The translations under genes and the position numbers were made by a program. From assembly GCA_963769425.1 (NCBI GenBank), contig CAVYLP010000002.1, positions 96,001-160,000 of the forward strand: DNA of 64,000 nucleotides, given 5' to 3'. The first letter of the stretch is position 1; the number at the start of each line of letters is the position of its first letter. The stretch comes from Candidatus Bathyarchaeota archaeon (GTDB lineage: Archaea; Thermoproteota; Bathyarchaeia; TCS64). Positions 635 to 37,951 of the stretch are shown here, in pieces. The notes beneath the pieces are model-generated. The model did not search any database. It saw only the letters and a list, made by a program, of their open reading frames with translations, and was not told the DNA's origin.

Positions 635-754
635 AATACGTAAAAGAAAACGGTGCTATTTCAAGCCTTAAATTAAATGATTGGATGTGCTTTTGCTGAA
701 ACAAGGTTGCTATCCGCGCGCACAGATAGATACCCACAAACCTTTTTACGACGC

Positions 755-1216
755 TTATTTTAATTCGTAAGATTTGTAGGGCTCTGAAACCGCTTTTAGG
801 TCTTCATAACTCAGCAACTTTGCAGAGTCGGGAAATATATTTATGATGGCTCTGTTCTCAGCTTTTTCCCCAGCAGGGAACCAAAAATAGTCGCTCATAT
901 CGGGATGAAGATACAAGTACCAGAAATACCACTTCTCCTCTACTTCGTTCTTATCCCCAAACTTTGCGTGACCCTCTAATTCAAAATATTTTCCGCTATC
1001 TTTAAAGTGGGGAAAGAAAACACGAACCCGCGGATTATTCTCTATGTCACGTACTTTCCTTGTGTTTCTATAGGTAGGAAACCACATCATTGAACTCGGA
1101 TTAGTATTCACATTCGTCATTGGACGACTATGCCTTTCATCATCAGGGCCAAATGTAACCAGAAAAACTATCTTTGAAGCTTTAAAGCTCTCCTCTAGTC
1201 CCTCTATTCCTTCCAT
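755..1216 (-). CDS. Pyridoxamine 5'-phosphate oxidase-like / general stress FMN-binding protein
   Basis: HSRPMT...WFPT...TRKVRDIENNPRV motif of the PNPOx-like split-barrel family. Confidence 0.75.
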   Translation of the reverse strand: MEGIEGLEESFKASKIVFLVTFGPDDERHSRPMTNVNTNPSSMMWFPTYRNTRKVRDIENNPRVRVFFPHFKDSGKYFELEGHAKFGDKNEVEEKWYFWYLYLHPDMSDYFWFPAGEKAENRAIINIFPDSAKLLSYEDLKAVSEPYKSYELK

Positions 1217-1510
1217 ATTGACAATCCTTTATTATGGAGCTTTTGCAATCTTATATAACCTCATGTTTTTGTTAAAATAAGTTTGTAGAGCATGATCTTG
1301 GAAAAGTCCTTAATAATGCACGCGTGATCAAGGCACCTGCATCGACGTTCAAGTCTCGTCCCTTGATGTTGTGCACGCGCGTATACATAATTATCAATAA
1401 TCCATCATTATTGTCTTATGAGTGAATGTAAAAAAAAATAAAAGAGAATAATGGAAGAATAATTATACATTCGCGCGCATTTTGAATAATTAAAATAAGA
1501 AGGTTTATTA

Positions 1511-1939
1511 TTACTTTACAACAAGCACATTACAATTAGACTCGTTAAGTACTTTAGAAGTAACGGAGCCTAATAACCTCTGTTTCAACTTACCTTCACT
1601 CGCAGCGCCGATAACAATTAGATCACATTTTCTTTTTGTCGCCTGTTCAACAATGGAAAATGCCACGTCAGAACTTCGTTCTGAGATTATTGTGAGTTTG
1701 ATCTTGTTTCCAAACTTACTGGTTATACTAGGGGACAGGGATTTCATCAGAAGATCTTCGTCTCTTGGATCCTTATGGCCTATCACTAGATTGACATCTG
1801 CTGATTCGCCCCAATAAACGTGGAGCACTATCAATTCAGAAGAATATTTTATTGCAACAGACGCAGCTTCGTTTAATGCCTTTTGGGACTGGTCAGAGCC
1901 ATCGAAAGCCACTAATATTTTTGAATAATCCATCCTCAA
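1511..1939 (-). CDS. Universal stress protein (UspA family)
   Basis: KILVAFDGS, DLIVIGA, LLGSVTSKVL...VLVVK. Confidence 0.9.
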   Translation of the reverse strand: MRMDYSKILVAFDGSDQSQKALNEAASVAIKYSSELIVLHVYWGESADVNLVIGHKDPRDEDLLMKSLSPSITSKFGNKIKLTIISERSSDVAFSIVEQATKRKCDLIVIGAASEGKLKQRLLGSVTSKVLNESNCNVLVVK

Positions 1940-2315
1940 CCATCTTCTCCACTCATTTTCTTTTCAAGGTGATTATTTGGTCTTTTTATTATTAAATAAG
2001 ATCGATACTCGTGAGGTAGTTTCTCCTAGTTTTCTATTTTGGTTCCGATGATACTCGGCGGTTTGGGAACCATATTTCAAGGTAGGAATCTTGTTTTAAA
2101 TAAGTTATAGGCTTACTGTGTTCAACCCCGTTTTCATCGAATATGCATAAATACTATTTTGCATCTTCTAAATATTTCTTCCAACCCATCATTTTTGTGC
2201 ATTTTGTCCCTAGTTACCAAGTTGAAAAACGAATTTAAAATACGCCCGTTTGAACTAGATTTTAAATTTCAAATTTAATATATTTAAAAAAAGAGGGCAA
2301 AAGGGAATCCGTTTC

Positions 2316-3155
2316 TTAAGCACCTGGATTACTGTTCAAACCAAGTGTTCCTTGCGCAGCTTTAATTGCCGGTTCATCCCCCCCCTTTCCCCTCAATATA
2401 TATGCGAAAAACACAGCTAACAACCCCCCAACTAAAGGACCAATTAGATATACCCAATAATGACTGAAATCTAATAGTATTAAGTCCGGTCCAAAGGACC
2501 TTGCAGGATTCATCGAAGCACCACTTATGGGAGAAGCCCATAAGCCTGCCAGAGCAATATAGCTACCAACGGCTATTGCGGAGAGAGGTCCGACGTTTTG
2601 TGCCTTTGAGGCTGTGCCAAGAATCGTGCTTACTAAACCAAGTGTAAGAACAAGTTCGATAACCATAGCTTGAATATCATTGATTCCGATACCCGGTGAA
2701 GTAATGCCTAATGTGCCAACGTTTCCAAATAGCTCTCTTAAAAATATGCAGGCACTAATTGAGCCTATTAATTGGGCAATAATATAACCGGGAACCCTGC
2801 GCCAAGGAAAATCACCGCGGGCTGCAAAAGAAATACTAACAGCCGGATTTAAATGGGCTCCTGAAACATTTCCCATAAAGAGGATGATTACCATCACCAT
2901 TAACCCGGGTGCAACAACTAACGCGAGTGAACTTATAGCTCCTTGAGTTACGTCATTGACAACGTTTGCTCCAACCCCTACTAAAACTAGAAAAAAGGTC
3001 CCAAATAACTCGGAGAAGAGTCTCCTCCATTCAAGGGTAGGATCGTCAAAGTTTTTTTTCCATGGTGCCTCAAATTCCGCGATCACCTCTAACCATTCCT
3101 TCCTTAGGTCTTTCCTACGTTTGCGTTCGGGTTCTGACTCCTCTGTATTCGTCAT
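2316..3155 (-). CDS. Aquaporin / MIP channel
   Basis: SGAHLNPAV and SMNPARSFGP NPA boxes. Confidence 0.95.
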   Translation of the reverse strand: MTNTEESEPERKRRKDLRKEWLEVIAEFEAPWKKNFDDPTLEWRRLFSELFGTFFLVLVGVGANVVNDVTQGAISSLALVVAPGLMVMVIILFMGNVSGAHLNPAVSISFAARGDFPWRRVPGYIIAQLIGSISACIFLRELFGNVGTLGITSPGIGINDIQAMVIELVLTLGLVSTILGTASKAQNVGPLSAIAVGSYIALAGLWASPISGASMNPARSFGPDLILLDFSHYWVYLIGPLVGGLLAVFFAYILRGKGGDEPAIKAAQGTLGLNSNPGA

Positions 3156-3651: not shown

Positions 3652-3653
3652 GT

Positions 3654-9742: not shown

Positions 9743-11469
9743 TTACGCCATGAAGTATCGCTGGGCCAATGCTAACTCGGTAGCCGGCTCGACGGTGGCT
9801 ATCTCTCCATCCAGCCTAACTTCATAGGTCTCGGGGTCAATGGTTATCTTAGGCGTCTTGTCGTTCCACATCATGTCCTTCTTGCTGATGTTTCTGCAGT
9901 TCTTTACGGGTAGCATAGTCTTCTCTAGTCCGAGCTTTTCCGGTACACCGAGATCGATTGCCGCCTTCGATGTGAATGTGAAGCTTGTCTTCTTCACCGC
10001 GCGGCCCATTGCACCGAACATCGGTCGATAGTACACCGGCTCCGGAGTGGGTATCGACGCATTGGGGTCACCCATAATGCCCCAGGAGATGAAGCCTCCC
10101 TTGAAAACCATCTTTGGCTTCACGGCGAAGAAGGCGTCCTGGTACATTACAATGTCCGCGTACTTGCCGGGTTCCAGTGAACCAAGGTAGTCCGCGACTC
10201 CGTTGGTAATTGCGGGGTTGATTGTGGTCTTTGCGATGTACCTCATGGCCCTGAAGTTGTCGTTGTCGCCAGTTTCCTCTGGGAGCGGTCCGGTCATCTT
10301 CTTCATCTTATCGGCCGTCTGCCAGCATCTGATCACGACCTCACCGATCCTGCCCATGGCTTGGCTGTCGGAGGAGTACATGCTCAAGACGCCCTTGTCA
10401 TGCAGGACATCCTCTGCTGCGATTGTCTCAGCCCTTATTCTAGACTCGGCGAAGGCAACGTCCTCAGGAACAGCTGGGTTGAGGTGGTGACAGAACATCA
10501 GCATGTCCAGGTGCTCGTCGATTGTATTCACTGTATATGGTCTTGTCGGGTTGGTTGAAGAGGGCAGAGCATTCATTTCTCCAGCGATCTTCATAATGTC
10601 TGGTGCGTGTCCGCCTCCAGCTCCTTCAGTGTGGTATGTGTGGATCGTTCTTCCATCTATCGCTGCGATTGAGTCATCAACGTAGCCACACTCATTGATC
10701 GAGTCTGTGTGGATCGACACCTGGGTATCGGTCAGATCAGCTGCCCTTAGAGAGGCGTCGATGATTGCTGGAGTCGTACCCCAGTCCTCGTGGTCCTTCA
10801 GGCCACAGGCACCTGCTTCGATCTGCTCCATCTGAGTCGCCAACGAAGGGTGCGAGTCGTTTCCCTTACCTAGGAAACCCCAGTTCAGCGGTATGTCCTC
10901 GCGGCCTCCATCATCCTAGCGATGTTAAATGGGCCAGGGGTACATGTTGTAGCGTTAGTACCATCCGCGGGACCAGTGCCACCTCCAATCATGTTACAGA
11001 TGCCGTTGCTGATTGCATCAACGTACTGCTGAGGACTGATCATGTGTACGTGGGTGTCAAAGTGACCAGGTGTGCATATGGTGTGCTCACCCGCGGTGAC
11101 CTCTGTGCAAGCCGAGACAACCATGTCAGGATCTACACCATCCATCGTATTCGGGTTGCCAGCCTTACCGATCCCCGCGATCTTACCATCCTTGATCCCA
11201 ATGTCGGCCTTGACAATCCCCAGTACGGGGTCAATTATCACCGCGTTAGTGATGAGGAAATCTAGAGCACCATTCGCACTCGTGATTCCGGGGGTTTGTC
11301 CCAAACCATCTCTAACCGTCTTGCCTCCACCGAAGACCTCTTCGTCTCCAGGTGTGAGATAGTCACGCTCGACCTGTACGAATAAATCCGTGTCGGCGAG
11401 GCGTATCTTATCGCCCTTTGTCGGTCCGTAGAGGTCGGTGTATTGCTTCCGGGATAATTTAAGTACCAT
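9743..11469 (-). CDS. ureC: Urease alpha subunit, split by a 1-nt deletion near 10900
   Basis: [47 protein letters not shown]; adding one G (GCG GAG GAC) joins the two ORFs as [18 protein letters not shown], 575 aa. Confidence 0.95.
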
Positions 11470-24660: not shown

Positions 24661-24927
24661 TCACTCAACGAACTTGACAGCTTCCTCCCTGGGGACAGCC
24701 ACAAGAGTCTCTAACGAGAGAAAGTCGCCGAATCGAAGAACAGCCTTCATCAAAACCTTCTCATCCCTTGCCTCGGCGACAGAAAGCACATCGTACCTGC
24801 CAACCGTCCAGTACTGAACCACCCACTTAATTCCCTCCTTAGCCATCTGCTCGAAGATCATCGATACCTGAGCCAACATCTCCTTCGTCGGCTTCTTTCT
24901 GAATTTACCATACACGATGAAGAACAT
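24661..24927 (-). CDS. GYD domain-containing protein
   Basis: QYWTVGRYDVLSVAEA...ETLVA. Confidence 0.85.
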   Translation of the reverse strand: MFFIVYGKFRKKPTKEMLAQVSMIFEQMAKEGIKWVVQYWTVGRYDVLSVAEARDEKVLMKAVLRFGDFLSLETLVAVPREEAVKFVE

Positions 24928-25166
24928 TCAATTCACCTGATTAAATTTTAATTTTCCACGCACTTAAACCTATAATTAATAAAAAACGTGAAAGTTTCCT
25001 ATATCTGCAAGAAACCTGATATTCTCCGTGTTTATCGTACGCATAGATGTCACGGGGATTCATTACCTCACCTTCGCTCCGCTCCACATTTTATGCGCCG
25101 TACGCGCATTTTTTTATGCAGTAAGTGAGCGTAGTTATTCTATTGAATGTCTAGAGGGGTGTTTGA

Positions 25167-25655
25167 ATGAGAATCGGGCAGGTTATCGCATCCATGATTA
25201 CATACTTGAGGGGAGACGTGAATGGAGTAAATCATTTCCTAAAAGTATACGCTTACGCCAAAGCCATCGGGGAGCAGGAAAAACTCGACGAAGTGACTCA
25301 GGAGACACTGGAGGTGGCGGCGATAGTTCATGACATAGGCATACCTGTCAGCATGGCAAAGTATGGTAGCCATGAAGGGAGATACCAGGAGATAGAGGGA
25401 CCGCCAGTAGCGAAAATGATGCTCAGCGACCTTGGATTTGCTGGATCCTTAATCGAGCGAGTCGCTTTCTTGGTGGGGCATCATCATACTTACTCTTGTG
25501 TGGATGGTTTGGATTACCAGATTTTGCTTGAGGCAGATTTTCTGGTGAATGCGGATGAAGGTAATCTAAGCCGTAATGAAATCGAGGTGGGGATGAACAA
25601 GTTCTTCAAAACCCGAAGTGGGATCGAGTTTCTTAAAATAAATTATCTTAGTTAG
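25167..25655 (+). CDS. HD domain phosphohydrolase
   Basis: HFLKV, AAIVHDIG, VGHHHTY, EADFLVN. Confidence 0.88.
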   Translation: MRIGQVIASMITYLRGDVNGVNHFLKVYAYAKAIGEQEKLDEVTQETLEVAAIVHDIGIPVSMAKYGSHEGRYQEIEGPPVAKMMLSDLGFAGSLIERVAFLVGHHHTYSCVDGLDYQILLEADFLVNADEGNLSRNEIEVGMNKFFKTRSGIEFLKINYLS

Positions 25656-26025
25656 ATGCGCGTATGCGTAATGCGGGCTCACCTAGTCGCCTCCACTTGT
25701 TATGTGCGCGTGCGGTCCTCCAAGTTTTATAATGCCTTTATCACATCTCCCTCAAACCGCAACATAGAATCTTTCCAAACTTACCTAGATGCTTCATCAA
25801 GGTCCTTATTCATAATTAATCATCTCGAATGTCGTGTGGCCTCACAGCCTCACCCGTGCTCCGTCCACGTTTTTATGCGCCAATATCACCGCCCCATCAG
25901 ATGAGACTCAGGGTGAGCCAAAACACCAAGCCATAATACATCAGTACCTCTGAAGAAGAGGCAGTTGGGTGAAATTAGCCCTAAAGTCTTATCCCCCAAA
26001 CCAAACCAAAAGTTAAGCACAAAGA

Positions 26026-26343
26026 GTGAAGGAGAATAGTATTAAGAAGAAGGTGGTGATGGAGTCAGGCTACTGCTGGCAACACATATACGACCACCTC
26101 GAAGAGGCCGGATACGATGTCAGGCTCGCCCACCTACTCAAAGTGAAGGCAATAGCCGAGGCAAAGATCATGACAGACGAGATAGACTCGGAGACACTCG
26201 CCCACCTGCTGAGGGCCGACCTGCTACCGGAGTCCTACGTGCCGCCTAAGGAGATCCGGGATCTTCGGGAGCTGGTCAAGAGGAGGGCATTCCTCGTGGG
26301 GATGCGAACCAGGTTGAAGAACAAGGTACACGCCGAACTCGCC
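26026..26343 (+). mobile_element. IS110 family transposase fragment
   Basis: VVMESGYCW, KIMTDEIDSETLAHLLR, PESYVPPKEIRDLRELVKRR; truncated after KVHAELA at a (CG)n run. Confidence 0.88.
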
Positions 26344-26351
26344 GCGCGCGC

Positions 26352-27025
26352 ATGTTGCACCCGCGTCCAAAAACCTCTCAATCTTCGAAATACAATCGTC
26401 AACCCCACCTGTGATAGTAATCTCCTCTACAAGATCACGTGGAGTCAGAGCACGGAACTCGTTGATCCTCTTTATCAAGTTGTATCAGTAACATCCATCC
26501 TCTGAATCGAGAGTTCTTGGGGATCTTTGAGCCCCGCCCTCTTTTCCAGTAACATTCGCTTAGCTATGAGTCATCCACGCGCATCGCCTTCCACACTCTT
26601 GTATGCTCTCTCCAGATCATTATCCACATCAGTGAAGCAGGTGACCACGACATCAAAAACATCCATTCTTCTACCAGACCTCCCAGCACCACACTCTATG
26701 TCTCTGATCTTTTCTCCTAGCTCGTTTGGGAGTTGGTCACCATCCCAATCCAGCCATCAGCAAGCTCTCCAGCGAGTTCCTTCGTCTTTTTCCCAATTGT
26801 GCCGACGTATACTGGAGGATGAGGCTTCTGAACGCATCCAATCTCATGTAGGCGTTTTTCAGAGTAAAGATCTCGCCAGAATAACTGGCAAGGTTAGAGG
26901 GTGACGCTTCCCAGAGCCTCTTTATAACCTCGATAGCCTCCCGGAGTCGGGTGAGAGGTCTCTTCAACTCGATTCCGTATGGAAGAGTGTTCATTATCTC
27001 CCCTGCAACTAGCCTGAGGGCGGCT
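26352..27025 (-). pseudogene. LLM-class flavin/F420-dependent oxidoreductase fragment
   Basis: AGEIMNTLPYGI...RLREAIEVIKRLW...SGEIFTL and ITGGVDDCISKIERFLDAGAT; frameshifted and truncated. Confidence 0.7.
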
Positions 27026-27042
27026 CTACTATGTGTGAGCTG

Positions 27043-27168
27043 ATCGACCCTGGGATATCCGGTGATTCAGACTCTGGCAAACCCTTCATTGAGGTGCACC
27101 CCGACTCGGTGGCGGCGAAGGCGTTTGGAGAAATAGTGAAAAAGATAATCGAGGTGGTTGAAAAATGA
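27043..27168 (+). pseudogene. Mrp/NBP35 (ApbC) C-terminal fragment
   Basis: IDPGISGDSDSGKPFIEVHPDSVAAKAFGEIVKKI-stop, overlapping the next ATG. Confidence 0.65.
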
Positions 27169-27353
27169 GGATAGCAGTGTCTAGTACGGGGAACAGCCTG
27201 GATAGCCAGGTTGACCCGCGGTTTGGAAGATGTCAGATTGTCTTGGTGGTAGACACCGAGACCCTAAAGGTGGAGGCTCTCAGCAACACCAGCATAGGGC
27301 AAATATATGAGTTAGAGACTCCATCAAATCATCTTCTGGCCAAAGATGTATAA
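27165..27353 (+). pseudogene. NifB/NifX family Fe-Mo cofactor-binding protein, truncated
   Basis: MRIAVSSTG...VDPRFGRC...VVDTET; C-terminal half missing. Confidence 0.75.
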
Positions 27354-27527
27354 AGATGTCTAGATTAGTGAAAAATGGAGGCTAAAGACATTAATCTATA
27401 AGTCTCACCCTAAACATTTTGAAACTATCTTGTGCAGAGCTAATATACGCGCGCGTCGCCGAGAGCCTGGGGCTTGATCTTGAGCAAGTTACAAAAGCCG
27501 CGGAGAAGTAAGGCATAGTGATAGGAA

Positions 27528-27926
27528 ATGAAAGGATATCACACTAACGTTGAGAAAGAGACCCTGAAAAACACCGACTATAGACGAGTCCTCTACACGG
27601 GAAAGCACAGTCAACTCGTTTTAATGAACCTTAAACCCGGGGAGGAAATTGGCGAAGAAGTACACAGCCACCTAGACCAGTTCTTCAGGTTCGAAGAAGG
27701 TGAGGGAAAGGTCACTATCGATGCAAACCAATACCCCGTCAAGGACGGTGACGCGGTAATAGTACCCGCGGGATCCAAGCATAACGTGATTAATACCTCA
27801 AAGACTAAACACCTGAAGCTCTACACCATCTACTCACCACCAGAACACCAGGACAAAGTCATACGCCACACCAAAGCAGACGCCGAGGCGAAACCCGAAG
27901 AATTCGATGGGAAGACAACAGAGTAA
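27528..27926 (+). CDS. Cupin domain protein
   Basis: QLVLMNLKPGEEIGEEVH...DQFFRFEEG...VPAGSKHNV...YSPPEH. Confidence 0.9.
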   Translation: MKGYHTNVEKETLKNTDYRRVLYTGKHSQLVLMNLKPGEEIGEEVHSHLDQFFRFEEGEGKVTIDANQYPVKDGDAVIVPAGSKHNVINTSKTKHLKLYTIYSPPEHQDKVIRHTKADAEAKPEEFDGKTTE

Positions 27927-27979
27927 AAAAATGTTTACCCGCAGAACCACGCGCACCCGATGAAGATCAAGTAATCACA

Positions 27980-28492
27980 TCAGATTCCATGGATAATGTG
28001 TACTATTATGACCATCACCAGGGTGAAGGCAGCGGCCGGGTGCAGCCACTTATAGTACCGCACCCATCCCGGCCTCACGGCGAAGTATGCCAGGAATCCA
28101 GTCACCACAAGGATCAGCATAGCCGAGTACAGCACAATTCCCGTCCCAAGGACGGGATAGCTCGAAGCCGGTCTAGTCACCTGGCTGATGAAGTGGATCG
28201 AGATGAGTACGAATCCCAGAAGGTTCCCGAACGCGTGGAACTTAAGCAGGGATCCCGAGGCTCTGTGTCGCGCCCTCTTCATCAGCGAGTAAGCCACGGT
28301 GGTTACGAGGATGAGGATTGAGCCGATCCAGCCGAGCCAGTGAACAGGCGAGTTCGCCACCCCCAGTACGTTGATTAAGATGAATGGGAGCCTCACTATC
28401 CCAAGGTAAATAATTGATACAGCGATTACCGCAGCGGCGATTATTGCTAGCGCAGCCCAGAACGATGGCCGCCGGTAGGACACGTTTAACAC
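27980..28492 (-). CDS. Hypothetical membrane protein with TM histidines (cytochrome b-like)
   Basis: Five hydrophobic segments; LKFHA, ISIHF, KWLHP, IVHI. Confidence 0.55.
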   Translation of the reverse strand: MLNVSYRRPSFWAALAIIAAAVIAVSIIYLGIVRLPFILINVLGVANSPVHWLGWIGSILILVTTVAYSLMKRARHRASGSLLKFHAFGNLLGFVLISIHFISQVTRPASSYPVLGTGIVLYSAMLILVVTGFLAYFAVRPGWVRYYKWLHPAAAFTLVMVIIVHIIHGI

Positions 28493-28552
28493 CGTTAAAT
28501 AGTCTCATTTATAGTTACTTTTCATATCGAATAAATTATTCATGACGGTGGG

Positions 28553-28724
28553 CTAAGACGGGTGCGATGAACTCAAGAGCCTCTGGGAAAGCCCTGGGGA
28601 CCACGGTGAAGTGATCAGCATCCCCGTATTTCTTATGCATCGCCCTGAGGGAGCCATCCCTAACCCTGAGGCCTCAACCAGCTCACCGACGGCCTCAACA
28701 TTCTCAGCCCCAACCCCATCCACA
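28553..28724 (-). pseudogene. Possible alpha/beta hydrolase C-terminal fragment
   Basis: Shifted reading ...YGDADHFTVVPRAFPEALEFI; begins at the GCGCGCGC run at 28725. Confidence 0.3.
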
Positions 28725-28999
28725 GCGCGCGCACCTAAATACCGACGGGATGGCCCCCAAGATGTTCTCTTCAGGCGGCCAGTTAGAACTAGTATTGACT
28801 TCGGCTCAATGAGTAGTGGATCGGCGTCTACCAAATTCTGAAGGTTGATACAAACGGCTGGAGTGTCTTCTGCATGCCACAATAGTATCAGGTAGCGCTC
28901 AGGAAAAGGCAATGGAGCGACACACGACTCTAAAGCCTATGTGTGGTTTTTATTATCCGCCTCCCGCTTCCTACCCAACTACCTAGAATCGGTGAGTAA

Positions 29000-29440
29000 A
29001 TGAGTGGCCTCGAATACAAATTAGGAAAAGACATCCAAGTTCTCCTCATCGACGACGAGAAGAACCAGATTGAACTCGCGAAGCTCAACCTAGAGAAAAC
29101 AGATACCTCCCTCAAGGTAACCGGAGCACAAACCGTAACCGAGGCGATGAGTATCCTCAAGACAATCAAACCAGACTGCGTCGTCTCCGATTACCTGATG
29201 CCTGAGATGAATGGAATCGAGCTCTACCTAGCAATCAAGGAGTTCGGCGTCCCCTACATCCTATACACGGGGCGGGGTAGTGATGAGGTGGCCGGCGCCG
29301 CCTTCTCGGTCGGTGTCGATGACTACGTTAGAAAGGAGCCGAATCTAGCACACTACGAGGTCTTAGCTAGGAAGATTAGGCACGCTGTGGATAAGAAGAG
29401 AAGTGAGGTCTGGTACCGAGAATATTTGAAGAAGGGATGA
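29000..29440 (+). CDS. Response regulator receiver protein
   Basis: LLIDD, DCVVSDYLMPEMNG, YTGRG, DDYVRK. Confidence 0.9.
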   Translation: MSGLEYKLGKDIQVLLIDDEKNQIELAKLNLEKTDTSLKVTGAQTVTEAMSILKTIKPDCVVSDYLMPEMNGIELYLAIKEFGVPYILYTGRGSDEVAGAAFSVGVDDYVRKEPNLAHYEVLARKIRHAVDKKRSEVWYREYLKKG

Positions 29441-29769
29441 ACTAAGCGTTTAGGCGCAAGTTCTATTACGAGAATCACATGGGAGATATTCTCCGAATTG
29501 TAACTAGGGTGCATTAACTTCTCAGAAGCCTAACTCAATGGCGGTTGAGGAGGGCAAGTGTAATTAGCCAAGGATACGCCTCCCAACAATAGCTGGCTCT
29601 GCGCGCGTAACAAAATGGTGCCATTTCTTGATATTAAAATGAACTGGCTCTTGTTCAGGTGACATCCTTTCTTCTCTTCATTGCCACTTCCAAAATTTGC
29701 CCTGCCATTGCTGCTATTACGCGGACAGGGTTGCTAACCTTTTTAATCAAACAAGTTCACGAACCCCTC

Positions 29770-30048
29770 ATGTCGAAGGTCGAGATGCCTCAGGGAAAGA
29801 TGCTACAAGTAGGGCCCACCGGGAACGTGGTGATGGTAACATGCTGTGATCGGGATGGTCGAGCCAACATCATAACAGTCGGCATGTGTATGCCGATCAG
29901 CATCGACCCGCCTCAGGTATGCATTGGGATAGCTCCTGAGAGGTACAGCCACGACCTGATTCTTGAACAGGGCGAGTTTGTGGTTAATTCACCCAGTATA
30001 GCTCTCAAGGATAAGATGCATCTCTACGGGATCAAGTCGGGGAGGGAC
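29770..30048 (+). pseudogene. Flavin reductase family protein, 3'-truncated
   Basis: VVMVTC...NIITVG...SIDPP...RYSHDLI...GEFVVN...SGRD then a (CG)5 run. Confidence 0.85.
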
Positions 30049-30295
30049 GCGCGCGCGATGACAATTTTCTCGTGATGCGGTAGAGCGACCTTACACAGTT
30101 TGATCTTGATCTAATTGGTTTACCCGTCTTCAGATCCTTCAAATCAATTTACAGAGTTTCTCCCTTCTCATCCATAAGACCTTTTCACATTATCTGAAAT
30201 AGACACATTGTATTAAAAACCCATTAACAGAAGCCATCGGACTCCAAAGTAATCTTTAAGGCAAATCATTCTCAACTACTTCTAAGGCGAAAGAG

Positions 30296-30775
30296 ATGGA
30301 TCCCATAGTCATAAACTGGTTAGGACCATACTCCCTTAACCAGACCACCCCTAAGGAGCTCAGGGGCAAGAAGGGACTATACGCGACTGCACACGGCTCG
30401 AATATTATTCTCATAGGCAAGGCGATGCATGGTAAGGGAATATTTCGAGAGGCTAAAGAGGGGAGGCTCTCCACGTATTGGGAGGGTCTGAGGAAGCTCA
30501 AAGTGGTGCCAGAGGAGAAGCCCTCCGGGTACAAACTCTTAGAGTATGTTTATGAGAACTGCTCCCTCTATGCCGGTGTGGCCAGAAGAGAGGACTTAAA
30601 TAACATCGAAGTCACAGAGCAGCTACTAGTCTATAGAGTTAAGCCTATCCGAAATGAGGAGTTCGTTAAATCCTACGAGGGCCCGCTTGGGCTTAGTGTG
30701 ATTAATAATGGGAATCCGCCGCCTGGCATCGAGCATATTATTCTCGCCCCTAGTTCTACTAAATCTGCAAAGTAG
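30296..30775 (+). CDS. Hypothetical protein, GIY-YIG-like pattern
   Basis: GLY...LIGKA...EQLLVYRVKPIRN. Confidence 0.5.
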   Translation: MDPIVINWLGPYSLNQTTPKELRGKKGLYATAHGSNIILIGKAMHGKGIFREAKEGRLSTYWEGLRKLKVVPEEKPSGYKLLEYVYENCSLYAGVARREDLNNIEVTEQLLVYRVKPIRNEEFVKSYEGPLGLSVINNGNPPPGIEHIILAPSSTKSAK

Positions 30776-30853
30776 CAGACTTTTCTTACCTAAGTAACTA
30801 AGTCAAAAAATAGTTAAAAAACGAGGGTATTTTAAAGATAGGTTATTAAATAC

Positions 30854-30988
30854 TTAATGCTTCTTTACCTTCTCTTCTAGATTCTTTAATCTAGCTTCGA
30901 TATCATCAATTCTCTTCTTCTCTGATCCCTTAATCTTTTCCTCTAGTTCTTCTATCTTCTTCTTCATTTTCTCTATTTCCGCAGACAT
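30854..30988 (-). CDS. 44-aa coiled-coil small protein (below the ORF track cutoff)
   Basis: MSAEIEKMKKKIEELEEKIKGSEKKRIDDIEARLKNLEEKVKKH; upstream GTGAGG and TTTATAAA. Confidence 0.6.
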   Translation of the reverse strand: MSAEIEKMKKKIEELEEKIKGSEKKRIDDIEARLKNLEEKVKKH

Positions 30989-31189
30989 TGACTTTTCCTC
31001 ACAAATTAATATTTTTGATAATTTATAAACGTTCTCTAAAATATTAGGAGCCGGTGAATTGCTGGTTTTTAGCGCGCGCTTCTTGGAATAAGTTAGCTAA
31101 AAATATTTGAGTTCTTTAATCGTTCATTGATATTACTAGTAGTTAATAAAATTCGTTCAATAGAAATTATTTGTAGAGTGATTGTTAAG

Positions 31190-31539
31190 GGATAAGTCAC
31201 TTGGAATTGAAGAGCTAGAAAGATTCTCAGCAGACGTACTCGGATCCGAGGAACACGTTAGCCATGAATGCAGTAACCCAGAATGGTATTGCCGCAGTTG
31301 CTCTCTGCCGAAGCGAGGTAGATAGAAAAAACTTCACCTTTAGCGACCTCATTGACTTCCCCGATGCAACCAATCAGGAGAGGTCAGGTAGATGCTGGCT
31401 CTTCTCAGGGCTGAGCCTCCTCGCACAAAAGGCCATGAAAAAACTGAAGCTTACACCTTCGAGCTTCGAAATATATCATATGTTCTGGGACAATCTAGAG
31501 AAAGCCAACTACTTCCTGGAGAATGTAATCGAGACTGCG
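31190..31539 (+). pseudogene. pepC: Aminopeptidase C / bleomycin hydrolase 5' fragment
   Basis: TNQERSGRCWLFSGL and FWDNLEKANYFLE; ends at the GCGCGC at 31537. Confidence 0.85.
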
Positions 31540-31557
31540 CGCACATGCATCTTTATT

Positions 31558-31878
31558 ATGTCCCGACCAGAAAGTCATTTGATGGAATCTCTAACTCACA
31601 TATTCGCCCTTAAGACGCTATTGATCTTGTTGAGGGAGGCTCGTACAATGAACGTTGAGGAGGTCGCTGATGAAATGAGAGAGTCTCACGGGGGTATTGT
31701 TCACGCCATTGATGAGTTAGAAGTGGCTAACCTTATTGAGAGTCGTAATGAGCGGATGGTACCTTATAACAGGGACATCACCCTTACTCCCTCGGGTCAG
31801 CGTGTTGCAGAGAAACTCAAAGAGATCGAGGGCATTATTGGATGGAGAGGTAGTGGAGGCGTAGCTAACCTATATTAA
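31558..31878 (+). CDS. Winged-helix (MarR-like) regulator
   Basis: IDELEVANLIESR...ITLTPSGQRVAEKL; fused in frame behind the pepC fragment. Confidence 0.65.
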   Translation: MSRPESHLMESLTHIFALKTLLILLREARTMNVEEVADEMRESHGGIVHAIDELEVANLIESRNERMVPYNRDITLTPSGQRVAEKLKEIEGIIGWRGSGGVANLY

Positions 31879-32130
31879 TGCTATATGAGTTTACTTTTTT
31901 CTAACTTAAGCATTTAATCTATATTTCGCAATTTTTATGACAAGTCAACCACTATAAGTGCTCATATCTTAGGATTCCGTAAAATACCTCATGTCTGAAA
32001 AACTCAGATCCACATTGAATTTCCTTGTCGAGGGACCTCACAATTTTATAATGAAGTCACTTAGTGTTAGTGGGTGTAAGATCTGGGCGATACAAGGCAA
32101 TCAGCTTGGCGCATTGTATTCATTTTTCTC

Positions 32131-32895
32131 GTGCTCGCATCGATGACCTTAGTTAGCGTGTTTGTATTCGACGAATTAGTGGCGCCCGAGATCCCTCCAA
32201 ACGTAGTGTTCGTGCAAACCCTCAGGGTACTCATAGTACTGACGACGACGGGCATCGCAGTATTCGTCATTAGGAGGACGAAGAGGTTCATCGTGGGGAG
32301 GACTCGAACGAACGCGGCGAACTTCTTCGAGTTCATCATGATTGTCCTCATCTTACTGGTGTCGACGTTTTCGCTTCTGCACATCTTCAACGTCGACACG
32401 AATACGCTGCTGCTCAGCGGGGGCATCATCTCGATCACGCTAGGATTAGTGGTGTCGACATTCGTAGGGGACACCCTCGCGGGTATGCTGGTATTCCTAC
32501 TGAATCTGTACCACGTCGGGGATACGGTTTTAGTAAACAGCATACCGTGCAGGGTCGAGGAGATCAGCGCCCTCGTGACAAGGTTCAGAAACGATACAGG
32601 CGGGATTAGTGTCAATACCAAACACCGCAATTGCCGCAGGGAAGCGTCGATAGTCACCCGGTTCCCGGACGTCAACGGTGATTTGGTGAGAAGGCTTCCT
32701 TACACAAAAGATGATCGCGTCTACACGACGTACATGAACACTGAGGGCGTCGTCGCGCGACTCGACTCGATGCACACACGAATAAGACTCGACTCGGGAA
32801 TGGAGTTATCTTTCCTTAATAATAGCATCCTCTCAGGCACCATCGCCGTCGCTAAAATTGTGGGAGAAAATAAGGAGGAAAATAAGACTAGTTAA
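32131..32895 (+). CDS. MscS family mechanosensitive channel
   Basis: LGLVVSTFVGDTLAGML...YHVGDTV...VEEISALVT; a short out-of-frame patch near 32600-32650. Confidence 0.8.
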   Translation: MLASMTLVSVFVFDELVAPEIPPNVVFVQTLRVLIVLTTTGIAVFVIRRTKRFIVGRTRTNAANFFEFIMIVLILLVSTFSLLHIFNVDTNTLLLSGGIISITLGLVVSTFVGDTLAGMLVFLLNLYHVGDTVLVNSIPCRVEEISALVTRFRNDTGGISVNTKHRNCRREASIVTRFPDVNGDLVRRLPYTKDDRVYTTYMNTEGVVARLDSMHTRIRLDSGMELSFLNNSILSGTIAVAKIVGENKEENKTS

Positions 32896-33112
32896 GAATA
32901 ATGGCGCGCATGCAAATAATTTCCCTATAAATGTAATGAAGGGTTCTTTAGCAAAGGGCAGAAGAACCACGTCATCGATAAGATTCCTAACTCGTGCCGT
33001 TCAGTCTTCCCTTGTACGATGATGAAAATGAATCATGCCCAAACTGTTCCCGAAGCAAATTTTTACTAAACATTTTGTTCTAGTACTCTTGACGTATACT
33101 TGGGTAAATTAT

Positions 33113-33376
33113 ATGTCCGAAAAGAAAAAGAAGACAATCGAAGAGAGAACTGGAAAAACTGGAGAAGTAGTTGGAAGCAGAGTGAAGAAAGGATCCGAAA
33201 AGACCAACGAAGCTCTAGGGAAGGGAGTAAAGATCGGAGCTGGGAAGATGGAGAAGCCATTAAAGACCGATGCTAGGAAGGCCACCGAAGCGATTTCTAA
33301 TTTCGAGAAGGGTGTAATGGAGGGTATTGAGGAGGAGAAAAAGCGAATACGAGGCGAAAGACAGCGAGTACCGTGA
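33113..33376 (+). CDS. Hydrophilic K/G/E-rich hypothetical protein
   Basis: Start MSEKKKK; low-complexity helical sequence. Confidence 0.5.
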   Translation: MSEKKKKTIEERTGKTGEVVGSRVKKGSEKTNEALGKGVKIGAGKMEKPLKTDARKATEAISNFEKGVMEGIEEEKKRIRGERQRVP

Positions 33377-33399
33377 CATTTGGAAAGATGAAGACTATC

Positions 33400-35112
33400 C
33401 TATAGATTTTCGAGCGCACATGTGAGACCTAGAAGACACTTGAGTATATCAGTCTCGTTAACCACCCCAAGCAAACGCCTGTCCTCAAGGTTATCAACCA
33501 CCCAAGCGTTGTCGAGATCAGACTCCATCAGTTCAGGCACCAATTCATTAAGAGGCGTATCAGGGGTGGCTACAACAGAGCTTCTCAAAGTGAGGCTTCC
33601 GATAGTCAGGTTATTGTTCTTCTCAGCACCCACAAGGATGTCCTCAAGAGTTATTGTGCCGTGAAGTCTGCGTTCCTTGTCCACAACCGGGTACTCTCGG
33701 TGACTCTTATCCCGCACAAACCCCATCACCTCCCCGATCGTTGAGGACTCGTCTACGCTCAGCACATCGCCGCTCAGGTCACCGACCTTGAGAGCCTCAA
33801 GTCGTTTTGCGTTTGCGCTATCCTCGATCTGGTGGTAGAGGATACCAATCATCTCCTCCTCCTCGACGAACTCGTCGAGTGGCTGTATATCCCCGTAGAA
33901 GGAAGAGCCCTGGGAGAAGAAGTAGCTAGTGGCGGCGGCGACGAGGGTCGTGATTATCGTGGCTGGCCCCGAGGTTTCAGCTACGAACGCTACGCTTGTG
34001 AGCAGTGTCTTGTTCGTTGCCGCGAGGAGGGCGGCCATTGATGCCATCACGATCGTCACAGAGTTGAGGCTGGGGAAGAAGGAGCAATAGATGGCTCCGA
34101 TTGCAGCGCCAACGAATATTGTAGGTGTGAAGAGCCCGCCGCTCCCGCCCATCCTGAGTGTCACTCCCGTCAGGAGGATCTTGAAAACTGCCAGTGATAG
34201 GAGGAGGGTTATTGGGAAGCTGGTCGGTGAGCTGGCTAGACTGGAAATTGTGGAGTAGCCGACTCCCTGAATCTGTGGGAGGAGAATCCCAGCCACACCG
34301 ATGATGAGACCACCCAGCAGGGGTGCAAAATACTTGATGTTTACTCTCCTCATGCCCCGCTTCATCAGCTTCAGCACCTCGACGAAGGCCACACCGGCGG
34401 CCGCCGTGATTAGCCCGATGAGAAAGGAGTGCCCTACAAGAAGGAGGCTGACACCCTCTCCCTGAGTCTGCGGGAAGAGTGATTCAGCACCAAAGAAGGT
34501 TATTGAGATGGCGTACGAGGTGAGTGAGGCGATGGTGGCAGGTATGAGTGCTCTCCGGGTTATGTCTCTCTTGTATGGTATTTCGAGGGCGAAGAGGATC
34601 CCGGTGAGGGGTGCCTTGAATACCGCGGAGATGCCGGCGGCTGCCCCGGAGATCAGGAAGGCCTTCAGCTCCTGTTGAGTTGGCTTGAATCGTCTCGCTA
34701 TTAATGATCCTATACCGCCCCCGAGTAAGAGACTGGGACCCTCGAATCCTGCGCTACCACCAGTTCCGATCGTTATGGCTGAGGCGATGGGGTCCACGAC
34801 TGTATCGGTGGTGGAGATGTATCCGCCGTGGTAGTGGTAGGCCTCGAGTAACATGTGGGAACCGCTGCCCGTTTCCTTGCTTGTCCCAACTGATTTTACT
34901 AAGAGGTACGCGGCGAGGACACCGACTACGGGTATGATGATTATTACTAGCCAACTTGAGGAAGCTGCATCTATAGATATTGCTTGTATAAACTGATAAA
35001 AGAACATCAAAACTACGAAGGCGAGGCCCACAGAGGTTCCTATGAGCGCCGACGTAATTGCCAGTTTGGCGAAGTCGCTGAAGATTCCTATGTTAATATC
35101 GGGCTTATTCAT
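33400..35112 (-). CDS. ClC chloride channel/antiporter with CBS pair
   Basis: GSGS, GGSAGFEGP, FKAPLTGILFALE, GGSGGLFTP; C-terminal CBS domains. Confidence 0.9.
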   Translation of the reverse strand: MNKPDINIGIFSDFAKLAITSALIGTSVGLAFVVLMFFYQFIQAISIDAASSSWLVIIIIPVVGVLAAYLLVKSVGTSKETGSGSHMLLEAYHYHGGYISTTDTVVDPIASAITIGTGGSAGFEGPSLLLGGGIGSLIARRFKPTQQELKAFLISGAAAGISAVFKAPLTGILFALEIPYKRDITRRALIPATIASLTSYAISITFFGAESLFPQTQGEGVSLLLVGHSFLIGLITAAAGVAFVEVLKLMKRGMRRVNIKYFAPLLGGLIIGVAGILLPQIQGVGYSTISSLASSPTSFPITLLLSLAVFKILLTGVTLRMGGSGGLFTPTIFVGAAIGAIYCSFFPSLNSVTIVMASMAALLAATNKTLLTSVAFVAETSGPATIITTLVAAATSYFFSQGSSFYGDIQPLDEFVEEEEMIGILYHQIEDSANAKRLEALKVGDLSGDVLSVDESSTIGEVMGFVRDKSHREYPVVDKERRLHGTITLEDILVGAEKNNNLTIGSLTLRSSVVATPDTPLNELVPELMESDLDNAWVVDNLEDRRLLGVVNETDILKCLLGLTCALENL

Positions 35113-35213
35113 CCATTCACGGGCTCTTCATGGGATATTCAAACGCAGCTGGGTTTGTATTAATGTTACTCAACGATGGTATTCGCGATTGCGATTAATT
35201 GAACTATTTATTT

Positions 35214-35650
35214 TCATATAAATATTATGACTCGAATTAAATTGATGATCCTTGTGAATGAAGTGTATTCATAGTAGAATCCGGTGGTCGTTGTAACCCT
35301 TATGAGGTTGGAGGTGCTATTTTCGAGAGTCATAGTTGAAAGAACAAGGGGTACCTCATCGACTGTACACGGTGGGATAGACGTGTTTACGGGTATTAAC
35401 CCAGGAATACCAGATTGACTCTTTTTAATTGAAACCGATTCTATGTTAGCTGTTGAGGCCCCCAATTCTCTTACTGTGACCACGAGATTTCTGTTGTCGA
35501 TCCATGTCACCTGCTCGACTCTGATCTCGGTTTGGGCACGAATTGATTGAAACCCAACCATGGAGATGACGCAGGAGTAGGTTAAGACAGAGCAGGCGAC
35601 CGCTACGAAGATATTAGAATCGAAGAGACAATCGTGCTCAAACCTCTTCT
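35214..35650 (-). pseudogene. Degenerate archaeal type IV pilin/archaellin-like gene
   Basis: VAVACSVLTYSCVISMVGFQ hydrophobic stretch followed by AQTEIRVEQVTW...VTVRELG...IESVSI; 5' end disrupted. Confidence 0.45.
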
Positions 35651-35845
35651 ATGATCAACTTTAGAGCTATTCACCGAGATTCGGTTAGAAAGGTCGATAG
35701 CGCCTAAATATTTAATGAGCTAATAATCAATATCACCAGAGCTGTAATGAAATGAAACTTCATCTCATTAACAAGGTAGAAACGAGACATGTTACCTCTC
35801 TGAAAGCGATTATGTATAAATGGTGAGGATGAAGACTTCTAATAA

Positions 35846-37048
35846 ATGATTGTCTCAATCACACAGTCCCTCTCCATCAACCTCCTATGGAACGTACTAC
35901 TAGTAATACTCGTCGTCGCCTCAATAACCTACTACTTCAAGTTCCCCTACACCGTCGGACTCGTAATCGCGGGCCTAGCAGCTGCCTTCATAGCCCCCAA
36001 TCAGCTACCCTACATCTCACCGGCTATCTACCTACAGCTACTACTACCACCCATAATCTTCCACGCAGCCTTCCACATCGACATCACCACACTCATCAAA
36101 CAGGGAAAATTCATTTTCAGCTACGCTATCCTCGGTACACTATTTTCATCAATCCTCATTGGGCTCGTTGCCCACTACCTTCTTGGCTTGGAACTAGTCG
36201 AGGCATTCCTACTCGGGATAATCATCTCGCCGACAGACCCAATCGCGGTGATCACTATCCTCGAGGGATTGAAGGCGCCGAAGCGACTCGTCAAGATAAT
36301 CGAGGGTGAATCCCTCTTCAACGACGGAGTTGCGATCGTGGTCTTCACGTCCCTCGTAGCTTCAATGTCCGTAGTGATCGATCCCGTTGGCGTATCACTG
36401 GGGATAATTACGGCGGTTGTACTCGGGCTAGCCTTCGGCGTCGGCGTTGGTTATGTTGCCTCCTTTATTATCACGAGGTTCAAGGGGGATGTTCTGATCC
36501 AGACGGTGATCTCCTTCTTCGCGATGTATACCTCGTATCAGTTGGCCTCCTCAGCGGGGGGAAGCGGTATCATCGGAACGGCAATGGCCGGGATAGTACT
36601 TGGTAACCTTCACGCGAGAAGGGTTGAGGAATCGGTGTGGCTTAACATCGATAACGTATGGGAGTTCCTGACGTACCTGATCACCAGCTTCTCCTTCATA
36701 CTGATTGGCACATCGGTCAGTATTGGTAATCTGATTCAGGTGATCGAAATAGTTGTCATCGCCATCGTCATAGTGTTCCTCTCGCGTCTGGCCACAACTT
36801 TCGGTATGACTAGGATTCTAAACTTCGGGAAAAATCGTATCAGCGAACGGTGGCAGTTACTGATATCTCTGGCAGGCCTGAGGGGCGTCGTCTCAATTAT
36901 GCTAGTCTCCAGCCTTGACGCACCTTACTCCGGTACACTAACAAATATAGTATTTGGAATAGTTCTATTCTCAGTCATCGTTCAGGGTCTTTCATTAAAG
37001 TATGTTACATTAAAATTGCTCAAGAATGAATCAGAAATGAATGACTAG
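35846..37048 (+). CDS. Na+/H+ antiporter (CPA1/NhaP family)
   Basis: LLPPIIFHAA, ISPTDPIAV, IEGESLFNDG, AGLRGVVS. Confidence 0.92.
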   Translation: MIVSITQSLSINLLWNVLLVILVVASITYYFKFPYTVGLVIAGLAAAFIAPNQLPYISPAIYLQLLLPPIIFHAAFHIDITTLIKQGKFIFSYAILGTLFSSILIGLVAHYLLGLELVEAFLLGIIISPTDPIAVITILEGLKAPKRLVKIIEGESLFNDGVAIVVFTSLVASMSVVIDPVGVSLGIITAVVLGLAFGVGVGYVASFIITRFKGDVLIQTVISFFAMYTSYQLASSAGGSGIIGTAMAGIVLGNLHARRVEESVWLNIDNVWEFLTYLITSFSFILIGTSVSIGNLIQVIEIVVIAIVIVFLSRLATTFGMTRILNFGKNRISERWQLLISLAGLRGVVSIMLVSSLDAPYSGTLTNIVFGIVLFSVIVQGLSLKYVTLKLLKNESEMND

Positions 37049-37339
37049 CATTACACTAACCAGGAACCTTTTGAATTTTAATCTACAGGTTTCTTTTAGA
37101 CTAAAGTCCAGAGCATGAATATTGAAAGAGATCGTAATGAAGTTTAATTTGTCAAATCAGTTGAATCACTGATACTAATTTAATTCCTCTATGCAATATA
37201 AATAACATGCAGATTGAATCTTATTACATGTTTAAATCAAAAATCCTGCAGTAAATAATCAAATTAGTCAAGATTTTTACATAACGAATACAAATACAAA
37301 TGTTTTATTAGCTCCTCTTATTTGAATTAGTAAAGCATC

Positions 37340-37723
37340 TTGAGGTCACAAATTATGAACAGAAAATATGATTACGTTGTAACGGCCGTAAAAGAGCTCC
37401 AATCCGTTTCGATGGAGACCTTCGATAATCTAACACAGTTTGTAGAACATTTACGAGAAACACGAGACCTCTACGCCATAGATAGGGACACAAGCCACAC
37501 GCCCCTTCTATCACTGGGAATTACTCTTCTTATAATCCCTGATCCAATATCAACGCCAATTGGAGCAGGCGTCTTACTGTTTGGGTTAATGCATGAAAAG
37601 CTCGTTGGACCTCCGATATACATCAAGGACATATACGAGAACCTCAACCAAAACATGCAAGAGCTCTTAAATAATAGTGAAATATTCAAAACAATTTCAA
37701 TAACAGACACCACTAAAGCCTAA
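37340..37723 (+). CDS. Hypothetical protein
   Basis: LGITLLIIPDPISTPIGAGVL hairpin segment. Confidence 0.55.
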   Translation: MRSQIMNRKYDYVVTAVKELQSVSMETFDNLTQFVEHLRETRDLYAIDRDTSHTPLLSLGITLLIIPDPISTPIGAGVLLFGLMHEKLVGPPIYIKDIYENLNQNMQELLNNSEIFKTISITDTTKA

Positions 37724-37951
37724 AACCTTAGAAAGGTGGGAGTTTGTGATGTGCCGGGGATTGCCTCTAAATTTGTTGAGTATCATGACCATTTAAAATA
37801 GTATTGGATAATTTCGGGATAAGACAGCGCGCGTGAAGTTTGTGTGCCAGCGCTTGATTATGAGCTCCTCGAGTAGCGTGGAGTAGAGGCGTTCCTTCAC
37901 GGTTTGGAATTGGATCCACGATCATATGAGGATTTTGAACCGTAATTATGG

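Follow-up and report, generated by a model that had tools for sequence, protein, structure and literature searches.

Insertion sequences (IS) of the IS5 group duplicate a 4-bp CTAG-like target, and the PIF/Harbinger transposases are related to IS5. The end-joining proteins Ku and LigD are rare in archaea, and we know of no natural substrates of the archaeal enzymes. For mPing, a PIF/Harbinger-Tourist element, excision is reported to proceed through staggered cuts within the duplicated target, the break then being repaired by end joining via the microhomology of that site (PMC4561436). Here we analyzed a window of 64,000 nucleotides (G000:C2:96001-160000) from the 2.55-Mb archaeal genome G000 (six contigs, 53–57% GC per contig, assembly 91% complete). 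Its accessory stretch (window 1–38 kb, with a lower GC content of 39–52%) carries short alternating C/G tracts, hereafter called runs, and termini of an IS5-family element. The original prediction had taken the runs to be non-templated linkers between unrelated DNA ends, added by an undescribed joining or capture system. The observation itself was confirmed, and its interpretation is partly supported. The flanks of IS5-family elements carry GCGC within (GC)n and relics of these elements are cut at runs, which speaks against linkers of an undescribed system; an IS footprint, listed at the time among the alternatives, fits best, given two termini in the window and consistent flanks in relatives and metagenomes. 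With a probability of roughly 55%, we consider that breaks are provoked by an IS of the IS5 family whose target, (GC)n/GCGC, is unusual, and that these breaks, probably repaired by Ku/LigD, leave and extend runs and erode accessory DNA.

Like members of the IS5 group, the element encodes a single DDE transposase of about 340 aa with PF05598 and PF01609 domains, has terminal inverted repeats and short non-autonomous derivatives, and bears a short palindrome on both flanks, comparable to the CTAG-like 4-bp duplication. Unlike them, its flank is GCGC and it lies almost always within a longer (GC)n: among 80 metagenome loci with the 17-nt end motif, 57 have a (CG)n flank of at least 4 nt ending in GCGC, mostly 6–8 nt long. 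In a literature search, neither an IS5-family element with a GCGC target site duplication nor a transposase with a GCGCGC duplication was found. The proposed repair resembles that of mPing in that end joining would use the microhomology of the duplicated site, here a self-complementary GCGC overhang. The mPing element is eukaryotic, has a TTA/TAA target and is repaired mostly precisely, whereas here excision and repair by archaeal Ku/LigD are proposed, and the outcome would be run growth and one-sided deletions.

The IS5-family element and its flanks

The IS is 1275 bp long, with TG...CA ends and inverted repeats of 23 nt that include GCGCGC (TGCCTTGTCCC...GGGACAAGGCA; arms 1228 nt apart). Its transposase of 342 aa matches PF01609 (DDE_Tnp_1; 8e-17 and 2e-18 for two copies) and PF05598 (DUF772; 1e-9 and 2.5e-9), and related proteins are labelled 'IS5 family transposase' by their sources. 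G000 contains five transposase copies or fragments and about 14 copies or pieces of a miniature inverted-repeat transposable element (MITE) of about 510 bp; up to 21 IS5-like transposase matches were found in one relative. Judged by its sequence (DDE transposase, inverted repeats, dispersed copies and MITEs), the repeat family is an IS5-type insertion sequence.

Except for a few truncated or rearranged ends, the IS and MITE ends of G000 are flanked by GCGCGC or a near variant. The same structure was found in eight other genomes of the genus, as the original prediction had proposed to look for, and the runs flanking the IS copies there measure 4–10 nt. The 57 metagenome flanks are 4 nt (5 flanks), 5 nt (8), 6 nt (19), 7 nt (10), 8 nt (12) or 9 nt (3) long, and the far flank starts with GCGC in 24 of the 28 metagenome matches having a partner terminus. 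A second IS5-family lineage, with a transposase about 35% identical and ends TAGCCTG..., likewise abuts GCGCGC. In the window, two IS terminus motifs were detected where 0.17 were expected, at 23941-23957 (minus strand) and 37814-37830 (plus strand). The first terminus, at 23945, directly follows run 23937-23944, and the second ends at 37826, immediately before run 37827-37833. The original prediction saw no longer motif shared by the flanks of the runs; this is right for the other non-coding runs, and wrong for 23937 and 37827, which share the flank of an IS terminus.

Since the four nucleotides beside each IS end are GCGC and the rest of the run varies, GCGC is read as a 4-bp target duplication. 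The most likely reading, we infer, is a GCGC duplication of 4 bp with a strong preference for (GC)3-7. The implied original target runs measure 5–14 nt, that is, the IS would prefer runs that are already longer than 4 nt. Because GCGC is palindromic and no pair of occupied and empty sites was found, the duplicated target is indistinguishable from the element's own end. The case nearest to such a pair is a 4.9-kb duplication of 97% identity in G000 (C3:47191-52075 and C6:1003708-1008587). In C3 one border reads GCGCGC-IS-GCGCGCG and in C6 the corresponding one reads GCGCGCGCGC; the DNA beyond is unrelated, and its second border is run-free.

Three side observations were made on these elements. 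At L010 1453-2762 (G000 C3), an IS110-family element lies exactly between an IS5-like CA end and the flanking GCGCGC, and the same junction sequence is present in two unrelated metagenome contigs (L134, L137), which suggests that this IS110-family element targets the end of another IS site-specifically. At the borders of a nested insertion inside the MITE at C6:355967-357099, no runs were found. Many of the IS5-like transposase genes of relatives have a single in-frame TGA near the N-terminus, which may represent programmed recoding or else a defect common to them.

Excess and distribution of the runs

A run was defined as a maximal (CG)n tract of at least 6 nt in either phase. Genes were masked as open reading frames (ORFs) of at least 90 aa, longest first; small genes are missed by this mask, so that the 'non-coding' class holds some coding DNA. 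The window was compared with 300 first-order Markov simulations in 500-bp blocks, which keep the local dinucleotide content. The whole window contains 33 runs, 22 of them in 715-37833 and 11 in the core at 38–64 kb. The 22 are the 19 GCGCGC positions of the original prediction, every one of which does contain GCGCGC, together with the CGCGCG-only runs at 1376, 9998 and 32754; their lengths vary between 6 and 10 nt, as had been noted. Against these 22 runs the simulations gave 6.31 +/- 2.46 (largest 16), and against the 7 runs of at least 8 nt in the same region 0.31 (largest 3), so the excess over expectation that had been claimed is real, even though the region, described as AT-rich, is not very much so at 39–52% GC. 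The core showed no excess (11 runs versus 14.56 simulated).

The runs had also been said to lie without exception between genes or at gene breakpoints. Junctions were indeed found at 24280, 26343 and 30048; on the other side, runs 9998 (in ureC) and 32754 (in an MscS-like gene) are coding, and 14702/14714 and 28725 fall within unsupported ORFs of 119–123 aa. Similarly, none of the 19 listed positions is in the urease block, described as intact and run-free, but CGCGCG 9998 lies inside ureC and the block may not be intact.

In the whole of G000, non-coding DNA has 0.45 runs/kb (201 runs, 47% GC) and coding DNA 0.27 runs/kb (570 runs, 56% GC). Compared with the expectation from Markov orders 1–3, non-coding DNA is rich in GCGCGC (201 versus 65–97), GCGCGCGC (43 versus 3.5–6.3) and CGCGCGCG (27 versus 3.7–6.8). 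Coding DNA is depleted (GCGCGC, 471 versus 498–745 expected; CGCGCG, 309 versus 565–825). The genome-wide count that had been proposed as a check of the original prediction thus bears out the enrichment, and the excess is restricted to non-coding DNA. There, (CA)3 and (GA)3 show no excess and (TA)3 is mildly over-represented (212 versus 113–157). Among non-coding even runs of at least 8 nt, the (GC)n phase prevails over the (CG)n phase (24 versus 8), whereas at 4 nt the counts are 749 for GCGC and 916 for CGCG. Duplication of a GCGC unit predicts the (GC)n phase, and the bias of the long runs agrees with it.

These counts bear on the main rival explanation for the origin of the runs, namely that slippage or hairpin expansion of self-complementary dinucleotide repeats makes them where DNA is unconstrained, that the IS merely evolved to target them, and that the junctions reflect concentrated IS activity. 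The over-representation of the self-complementary (TA)3, not found with (CA)3 and (GA)3, points this way, as do the abundance of runs in G015, a genome without the transposase, and the preference of the IS for tracts that already exceed 4 nt. However, the (CG)4 excess is 4–12-fold, far above that of (TA)3; slippage does not predict the phase bias, and it would not put a run at truncations where the homologues have none. We regard it as unlikely.

The palindromic nature of the runs, which are sequences of restriction type, and their depletion in coding DNA would also suit a nuclease specific for GCGC, CGCG, GCGCGC or Z-DNA-prone tracts, which would cut at runs independently of the IS, with repair by deletion or capture of DNA; end-joining genes are indeed present. 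Yet such a nuclease leaves unexplained why IS termini abut runs, and simple cutting and religation gives a fixed run length. Moreover, no match to a C5 (PF00145) or N4/N6 (PF01555) DNA methyltransferase was found in the 91%-complete G000, in which control searches matched. We consider this explanation very unlikely. In the particular form of BssHII-type cutting and ligation it was rejected: only G(CG)nC of 6, 8 and 10 nt would be produced, whereas a first base C or an odd length is found in many runs, and again no methyltransferase was found. The original prediction had suggested correlating the signature with genes for candidate enzymes; on the positive side this yielded a Ku/LigD cluster, situated in G000 outside the window, and on the negative side the lack of methyltransferase matches.

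Within 15 nt of the 201 non-coding runs no conserved base was found, nor any fixed distance to genes. Convergent spacers hold somewhat more runs (0.58/kb) than divergent ones (0.34/kb); with a preference so mild and no flank motif, a promoter or terminator role was rejected. Of 152 gene adjacencies conserved between G015 and G000, 140 have a run in neither genome, 10 in one genome only and 2 in both, one of these two being really coding sequence. The runs are evolutionarily labile rather than conserved features. They are about twice as frequent in broken as in conserved adjacencies (25 of 220 versus 8 of 152 intervals, p = 0.04).

That selection maintains the runs for some function (as protein-binding sites, Z-DNA insulators or 3'-end signals) and that they adjoin junctions incidentally seems most improbable in view of this lability, of the missing flank motif and fixed gene distance, and of the runs inside broken genes. 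The density in convergent spacers would favor such a role, as would a run found at the same place beside a two-gene block in two genomes, and one within CCCGCGCGCGGG that is kept in an otherwise diverged upstream region in G015 and G000. The last case is an observation in its own right: the palindrome is shared by G000 C6:390033-390366 and G015:C23 ~578178-578502, upstream of an orthologous gene pair with diverged surroundings, and is possibly a protein-binding site, unlike the labile runs.

Purine/pyrimidine alternation had been reported to extend beyond the runs. At least 4 nt of further alternation was found at 7.7% of run ends and at 3.8% of controls. Such a two-fold excess is too small to make extended alternation a general sign of decayed longer runs, and that idea was dropped; decay by transitions is clear in two single cases, at 32904 (Table 1) and in a relic flank of G015 (GCGCACACG). 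Some runs thus decay into alternating purine/pyrimidine tracts, which explains the extension that had been reported.

Truncation junctions and their proposed repair

Alignments with paralogues or homologues end exactly at runs at 23938-24280, 29733-30048 and 31546/31549, and so does the IS110 transposase fragment 26047-26340 on its outer side. The IS fragment 23938-24280 has a run at both ends, of which 23937 is also present in the paralogue and 24280 is absent from two intact paralogous IS copies. Run 26343 is absent from an 89%-identical homologue (L016), and in place of run 30048 the homologues have GAC-ATTGAC (C3, 77%) or GAC-CTTGAC (L017, 86%). The alignment of truncated genes with intact homologues, as suggested with the original prediction, therefore shows that runs 24280, 26343 and 30048 are not templated by the closest intact homologues. 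Outside the window, an IS relic at C4:251991 is cut at a run absent from a 93%-identical copy, and another (G015:C23:458615-458743) is cut at a run (458744) absent from two intact IS copies. These two relics and that at 23945-24279 each keep one intact terminus with its flanking run, the other side being cut at a run. In a self-BLAST of G000, 60 of 2205 alignment endpoints (2.7%) fall within 3 nt of a run, versus 0.41% of random positions; they represent 31 distinct runs, and about half are ends of one repeat family. As the IS is flanked by runs on both sides and its relics are cut at runs, a junction run is most simply taken to be the run that already flanked an IS end.

It seems scarcely credible that the junctions are artifacts of assembly or library chimerism, which the original prediction had likewise thought unlikely. 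In favor of an artifact, the window junctions are known from the assembly alone, and no independent copy of the 30048 junction was found in other metagenome contigs. However, the same IS-plus-run structure recurs in many independent assemblies: it or the same type of truncation is seen in eight relatives, in G015 and in 80 metagenome contigs from many samples. The fragments have diverged rather than been freshly mis-joined, because they are 77–89% identical to their nearest homologues, and a repeat of 6–10 nt would be too short to mislead an assembler.

Genes for LigD primase-polymerase, Ku and an ATP-dependent ligase fused to a LigD phosphoesterase domain lie adjacent in G000 (C6:594000-597500; L055 5019-8486), clustered as in prokaryotic Ku/LigD non-homologous end joining, in which the ligase carries a 3'-phosphoesterase domain. 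The adjacent ORFs match PF02735 (131 bits), PF21686 (220 bits) and PF13298 (143 bits), as well as PF04679 and PF01068. Of the genomes searched, 15 of 18 in the run-carrying family have Ku, compared with 0 of 12 in neighbouring families. From this co-occurrence, Ku/LigD may act at the run junctions. Ku has been reported before in Thaumarchaeota, for example Nitrososphaera and Nitrosocosmicus (PMC11936186). No link between the Ku/LigD pathway and IS scars or (GC)n tracts was found in a literature search.

With such enzymes at hand, one might suppose, in line with the original prediction, that an end-joining enzyme, be it the LigD polymerase domain or some other primase-polymerase, extends broken ends by alternating C and G, that any two ends can then anneal, and that the IS exploits the linkers later. 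Linker synthesis of this kind would account for the six truncation-junction runs that are not templated by their closest homologues and for run lengths varying from 6 to 10 nt, and it fits the occurrence of Ku and LigD described above. We know of no polymerase that adds alternating CG without a template. It is not needed, since a pre-existing flanking run explains the relics with exactly one terminus that end at a run; run 23937 is templated as a normal IS flank, and the break at 26047 has no run. Furthermore, GCGCGCGC occurs just once in each of the Ku-bearing genomes G001 and G010, although their GC content of about 34% explains much of this. Linker synthesis appears quite improbable.

In the reading that we prefer, (GC)n runs would be the preferred landing sites of the IS5-family IS and its MITEs and would persist as scars, each marking a place of repeated double-strand breaks by the transposase. 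A break at one IS end, or at both on excision, might lead to one-sided resection, and the resected end would be rejoined, probably by the Ku/LigD end-joining enzymes. The rejoined junction would retain the flanking run, abutting the resection endpoint, and a truncated gene or IS would thus stop at a run that is absent from its homologue. Resection on the IS side and rejoining to the flank would leave a relic with one terminus, while the flank keeps its (GC)n; resection of one flank after excision would leave a truncated gene against the run of the other flank. If both GCGC copies were kept on repair, the run would grow (from 4 to 8 to 12 nt) and become a better target. By repeated cycles, accessory DNA would be eroded and reshuffled, leaving a mosaic in which runs separate genes and fragments.

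Several observations weigh against this reading. No occupied/empty pair was found, and neither a target duplication nor an excision footprint was seen directly: no empty site was found for the MITE at C6:853725, whose flanks are not syntenic in 17 genomes of the genus; for 11 relatives' IS loci, the two flanks do not come together in G000; and the sequences flanking IS copies of G016 and G012 gave no match in five other genomes. In G008, an IS end with GCGCGC adjoins a gene, and the G000 orthologue of this gene lacks GCGC at that point, a finding that equally fits a later deletion or a run travelling with the element. A recognisable terminus lies beside only 15 of the 771 runs of G000 (13 of the 201 non-coding ones), beside none of 56 in a 100-kb sample of G015 and beside 2 of 25 in a sample of G012. 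G015, G013, G003 and G017 have 55–351 copies of GCGCGCGC and no transposase match at E<=1e-10. Over 19 genomes, (CG)4 density has a rank correlation of 0.40 (p = 0.09) with transposase matches and of 0.69 with excess terminus motifs; GC content, genome size and kinship confound both values. When the window was compared with the loci of 19 relatives, 2 of 61 homology endpoints fell within 10 nt of a run, about 1 being expected; there is no enrichment, and most of these endpoints reflect divergence, not rearrangement. Finally, the inner break of the IS110 fragment at 26047 is without a run, and junctions 24280 and 31537, with truncated sequence to either side, cannot be the product of a single event.

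If the IS5 reading holds, the non-coding (GC)n excess would be a readout of the past activity of one transposon family, marking breakage, loss and gain of accessory DNA in soil and sediment Nitrososphaeria-like archaea, and the way in which end joining molds an archaeal genome could be tested on a definite example. Insertion directed to safe sites by structure or sequence would likewise have a natural instance in an IS with a strict (GC)n target. If the reading fails, the (GC)n excess at junctions, strong and specific to the lineage, still lacks an explanation and deserves a search for other mechanisms. A further-reaching version, which we hold to be doubtful, is that the IS5-type transposase and Ku/LigD form a self-reinforcing process of cutting, erosion and capture at the (GC)n tracts of this archaeal lineage. 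Each cycle of insertion and excision would lengthen a tract and delete its neighbours, or trap stray DNA between half-tracts and so create new tracts, and accessory regions would turn into rows of genes and gene pieces joined at (GC)n. Such a process would parallel, in a prokaryote, the capture of filler DNA where transposons have excised, and would open a new route by which accessory genes are acquired and decay.

Features of the window and minor observations

The accessory stretch encodes an aquaporin, an ammonium transporter, urease genes and a urea transporter. Cupin, response-regulator, MscS-like, CLC channel and Na/H exchanger genes are whole, and IS110 transposase, flavin reductase and peptidase C1 are represented by pieces. 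The runs and the parts around them are collected in Table 1.

Table 1. Runs, IS relics, gene fragments and the tRNA border in the window (window coordinates)
Feature	Position	Strand	Remarks
Run CGCGCGC	715-721		between convergent ORFs
CGCGCG	1376-1381		intergenic; within 19-nt purine/pyrimidine-alternating tract 1371-1389
Run CGCGCGC	1472-1478		intergenic
CGCGCG	9998-10003		inside ureC (urease alpha); coding, no junction
Two CGCGCGC runs (14702, 14714)	14697-14720		12-nt tandem repeat (TAATCCGCGCGC x2); unsupported ORF
Run GCGCGC	15046-15051		~35 nt past end of two-gene block
Run GCGCGC	17973-17978		intergenic; ~190 nt past other end of the two-gene block of 15046
Run GCGCGC	18587-18592		intergenic
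Run CGCGCGCG	20215-20222		intergenic
Run GCGCGCGC	23937-23944		outer flank of IS5-like terminus (target or duplicated site)
IS5-family relic	23945-24279	-	one terminal inverted repeat (TACCCTGTTCC...) and last ~48-52 transposase codons; cut at 24280-24286
Run CGCGCGC	24280-24286		truncation point of IS relic
IS110-family relic	25703-26342	+	starts at degenerate run GCGCGTGCGG (25704-25713)
Run	26343-26351		truncation point of IS110 fragment
Run CGCGCGCG	27448-27455		upstream of intact cupin gene
Run GCGCGCGC	28725-28732		upstream of intact response-regulator gene; inside unsupported 119-aa ORF
Run GCGCGCG	29601-29607		upstream of flavin-reductase fragment
Flavin reductase N-terminal fragment	29755-30047	+	~residues 1-98 of 182; own upstream region retained
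Run (CG)5	30048-30057		flavin-reductase truncation point
Run GCGCGCGC	31072-31079		intergenic
Peptidase C1-like N-terminal fragment	31264-31546	+	Pfam profile positions 25-118 of 438
GCGCGC and alternating tract	31537-31550		in-frame join of peptidase C1 fragment to second gene
CGCGCG	32754-32759		inside MscS-like gene; paralogue differs by substitutions alone; coding, no junction
Run GCGCGC	32904-32909		directly past MscS-like stop codon; paralogue has GGCACACGTG there, run decayed by transitions
IS5-like/MITE right end	37770-37826	+	terminal ~57 nt (...GGGATAAGACA)
Run GCGCGCG	37827-37833		flanks IS5-like/MITE right end; 115 nt from tRNA-Val
Bracketed stretch, 13.9 kb	23945-37826		two inward-facing IS5-like termini, (GC)n outside each; whole genes, fragments, 10 internal runs
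tRNA-Val	37949-38025	-	border between accessory stretch, which ends here, and core

Some features extend to relatives or to other loci of G000. A run occurs in relative L014 at the place matching 15046, and the DNA beyond it differs. In relative L017, a run lies about 20 nt upstream of the promoter region that it has in common with the flavin-reductase fragment of the window. Part of the IS110 relic (26047-26340) encodes residues 64–161 of a transposase of 370. The second gene at the 31537 join (window 31549-31866) is similar to C4:19003-19329 and covers residues 4–109 of 109.

The 13.9-kb stretch between the two inward-pointing termini resembles a mobile insertion cassette or composite transposon in its (GC)n outside each end and its passenger genes, with no intact transposase inside. 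From this arrangement it may be a composite or passenger-carrying element, or else two unrelated relics. Unlike a composite transposon, it has no second copy or empty site to show movement of the unit, and relatives hold scattered pieces from 14–33 kb, never the array. The row of single genes and pieces with a short element recurring between them recalls integron cassette arrays; in contrast to these, no attC-like imperfect palindrome or conserved flank accompanies the 201 non-coding runs, and many of the units are gene fragments.

Urease alpha (window 9743-11469, minus strand) is divided into two ORFs in different frames, 9743-10843 and 10885-11469, and its relatives align across the gap; it may be a frameshifted pseudogene or reflect an assembly indel. 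The genomes of the genus are far apart in composition: in sampled stretches, G001 and G010 have about 34% GC, versus 50–58% in G012 and G015. In the core, a 767-bp tandem duplication (40802-41568 and 41569-42334, 95.6% identity) carries the same GCGCGCG in each copy. Two 91-nt repeats of 98.9% identity (47434-47524 and 49162-49252), each the 5' half of tRNA-Glu with 37 nt upstream, are separated by 1.7 kb and look like the attachment sites of a small integrated remnant. In the accessory stretch, a 44-nt inverted repeat of 86% identity joins 27296-27339 with 31567-31610, and a non-coding repeat of about 255 nt at 27043-27299 has copies of 80–89% identity in four relatives.

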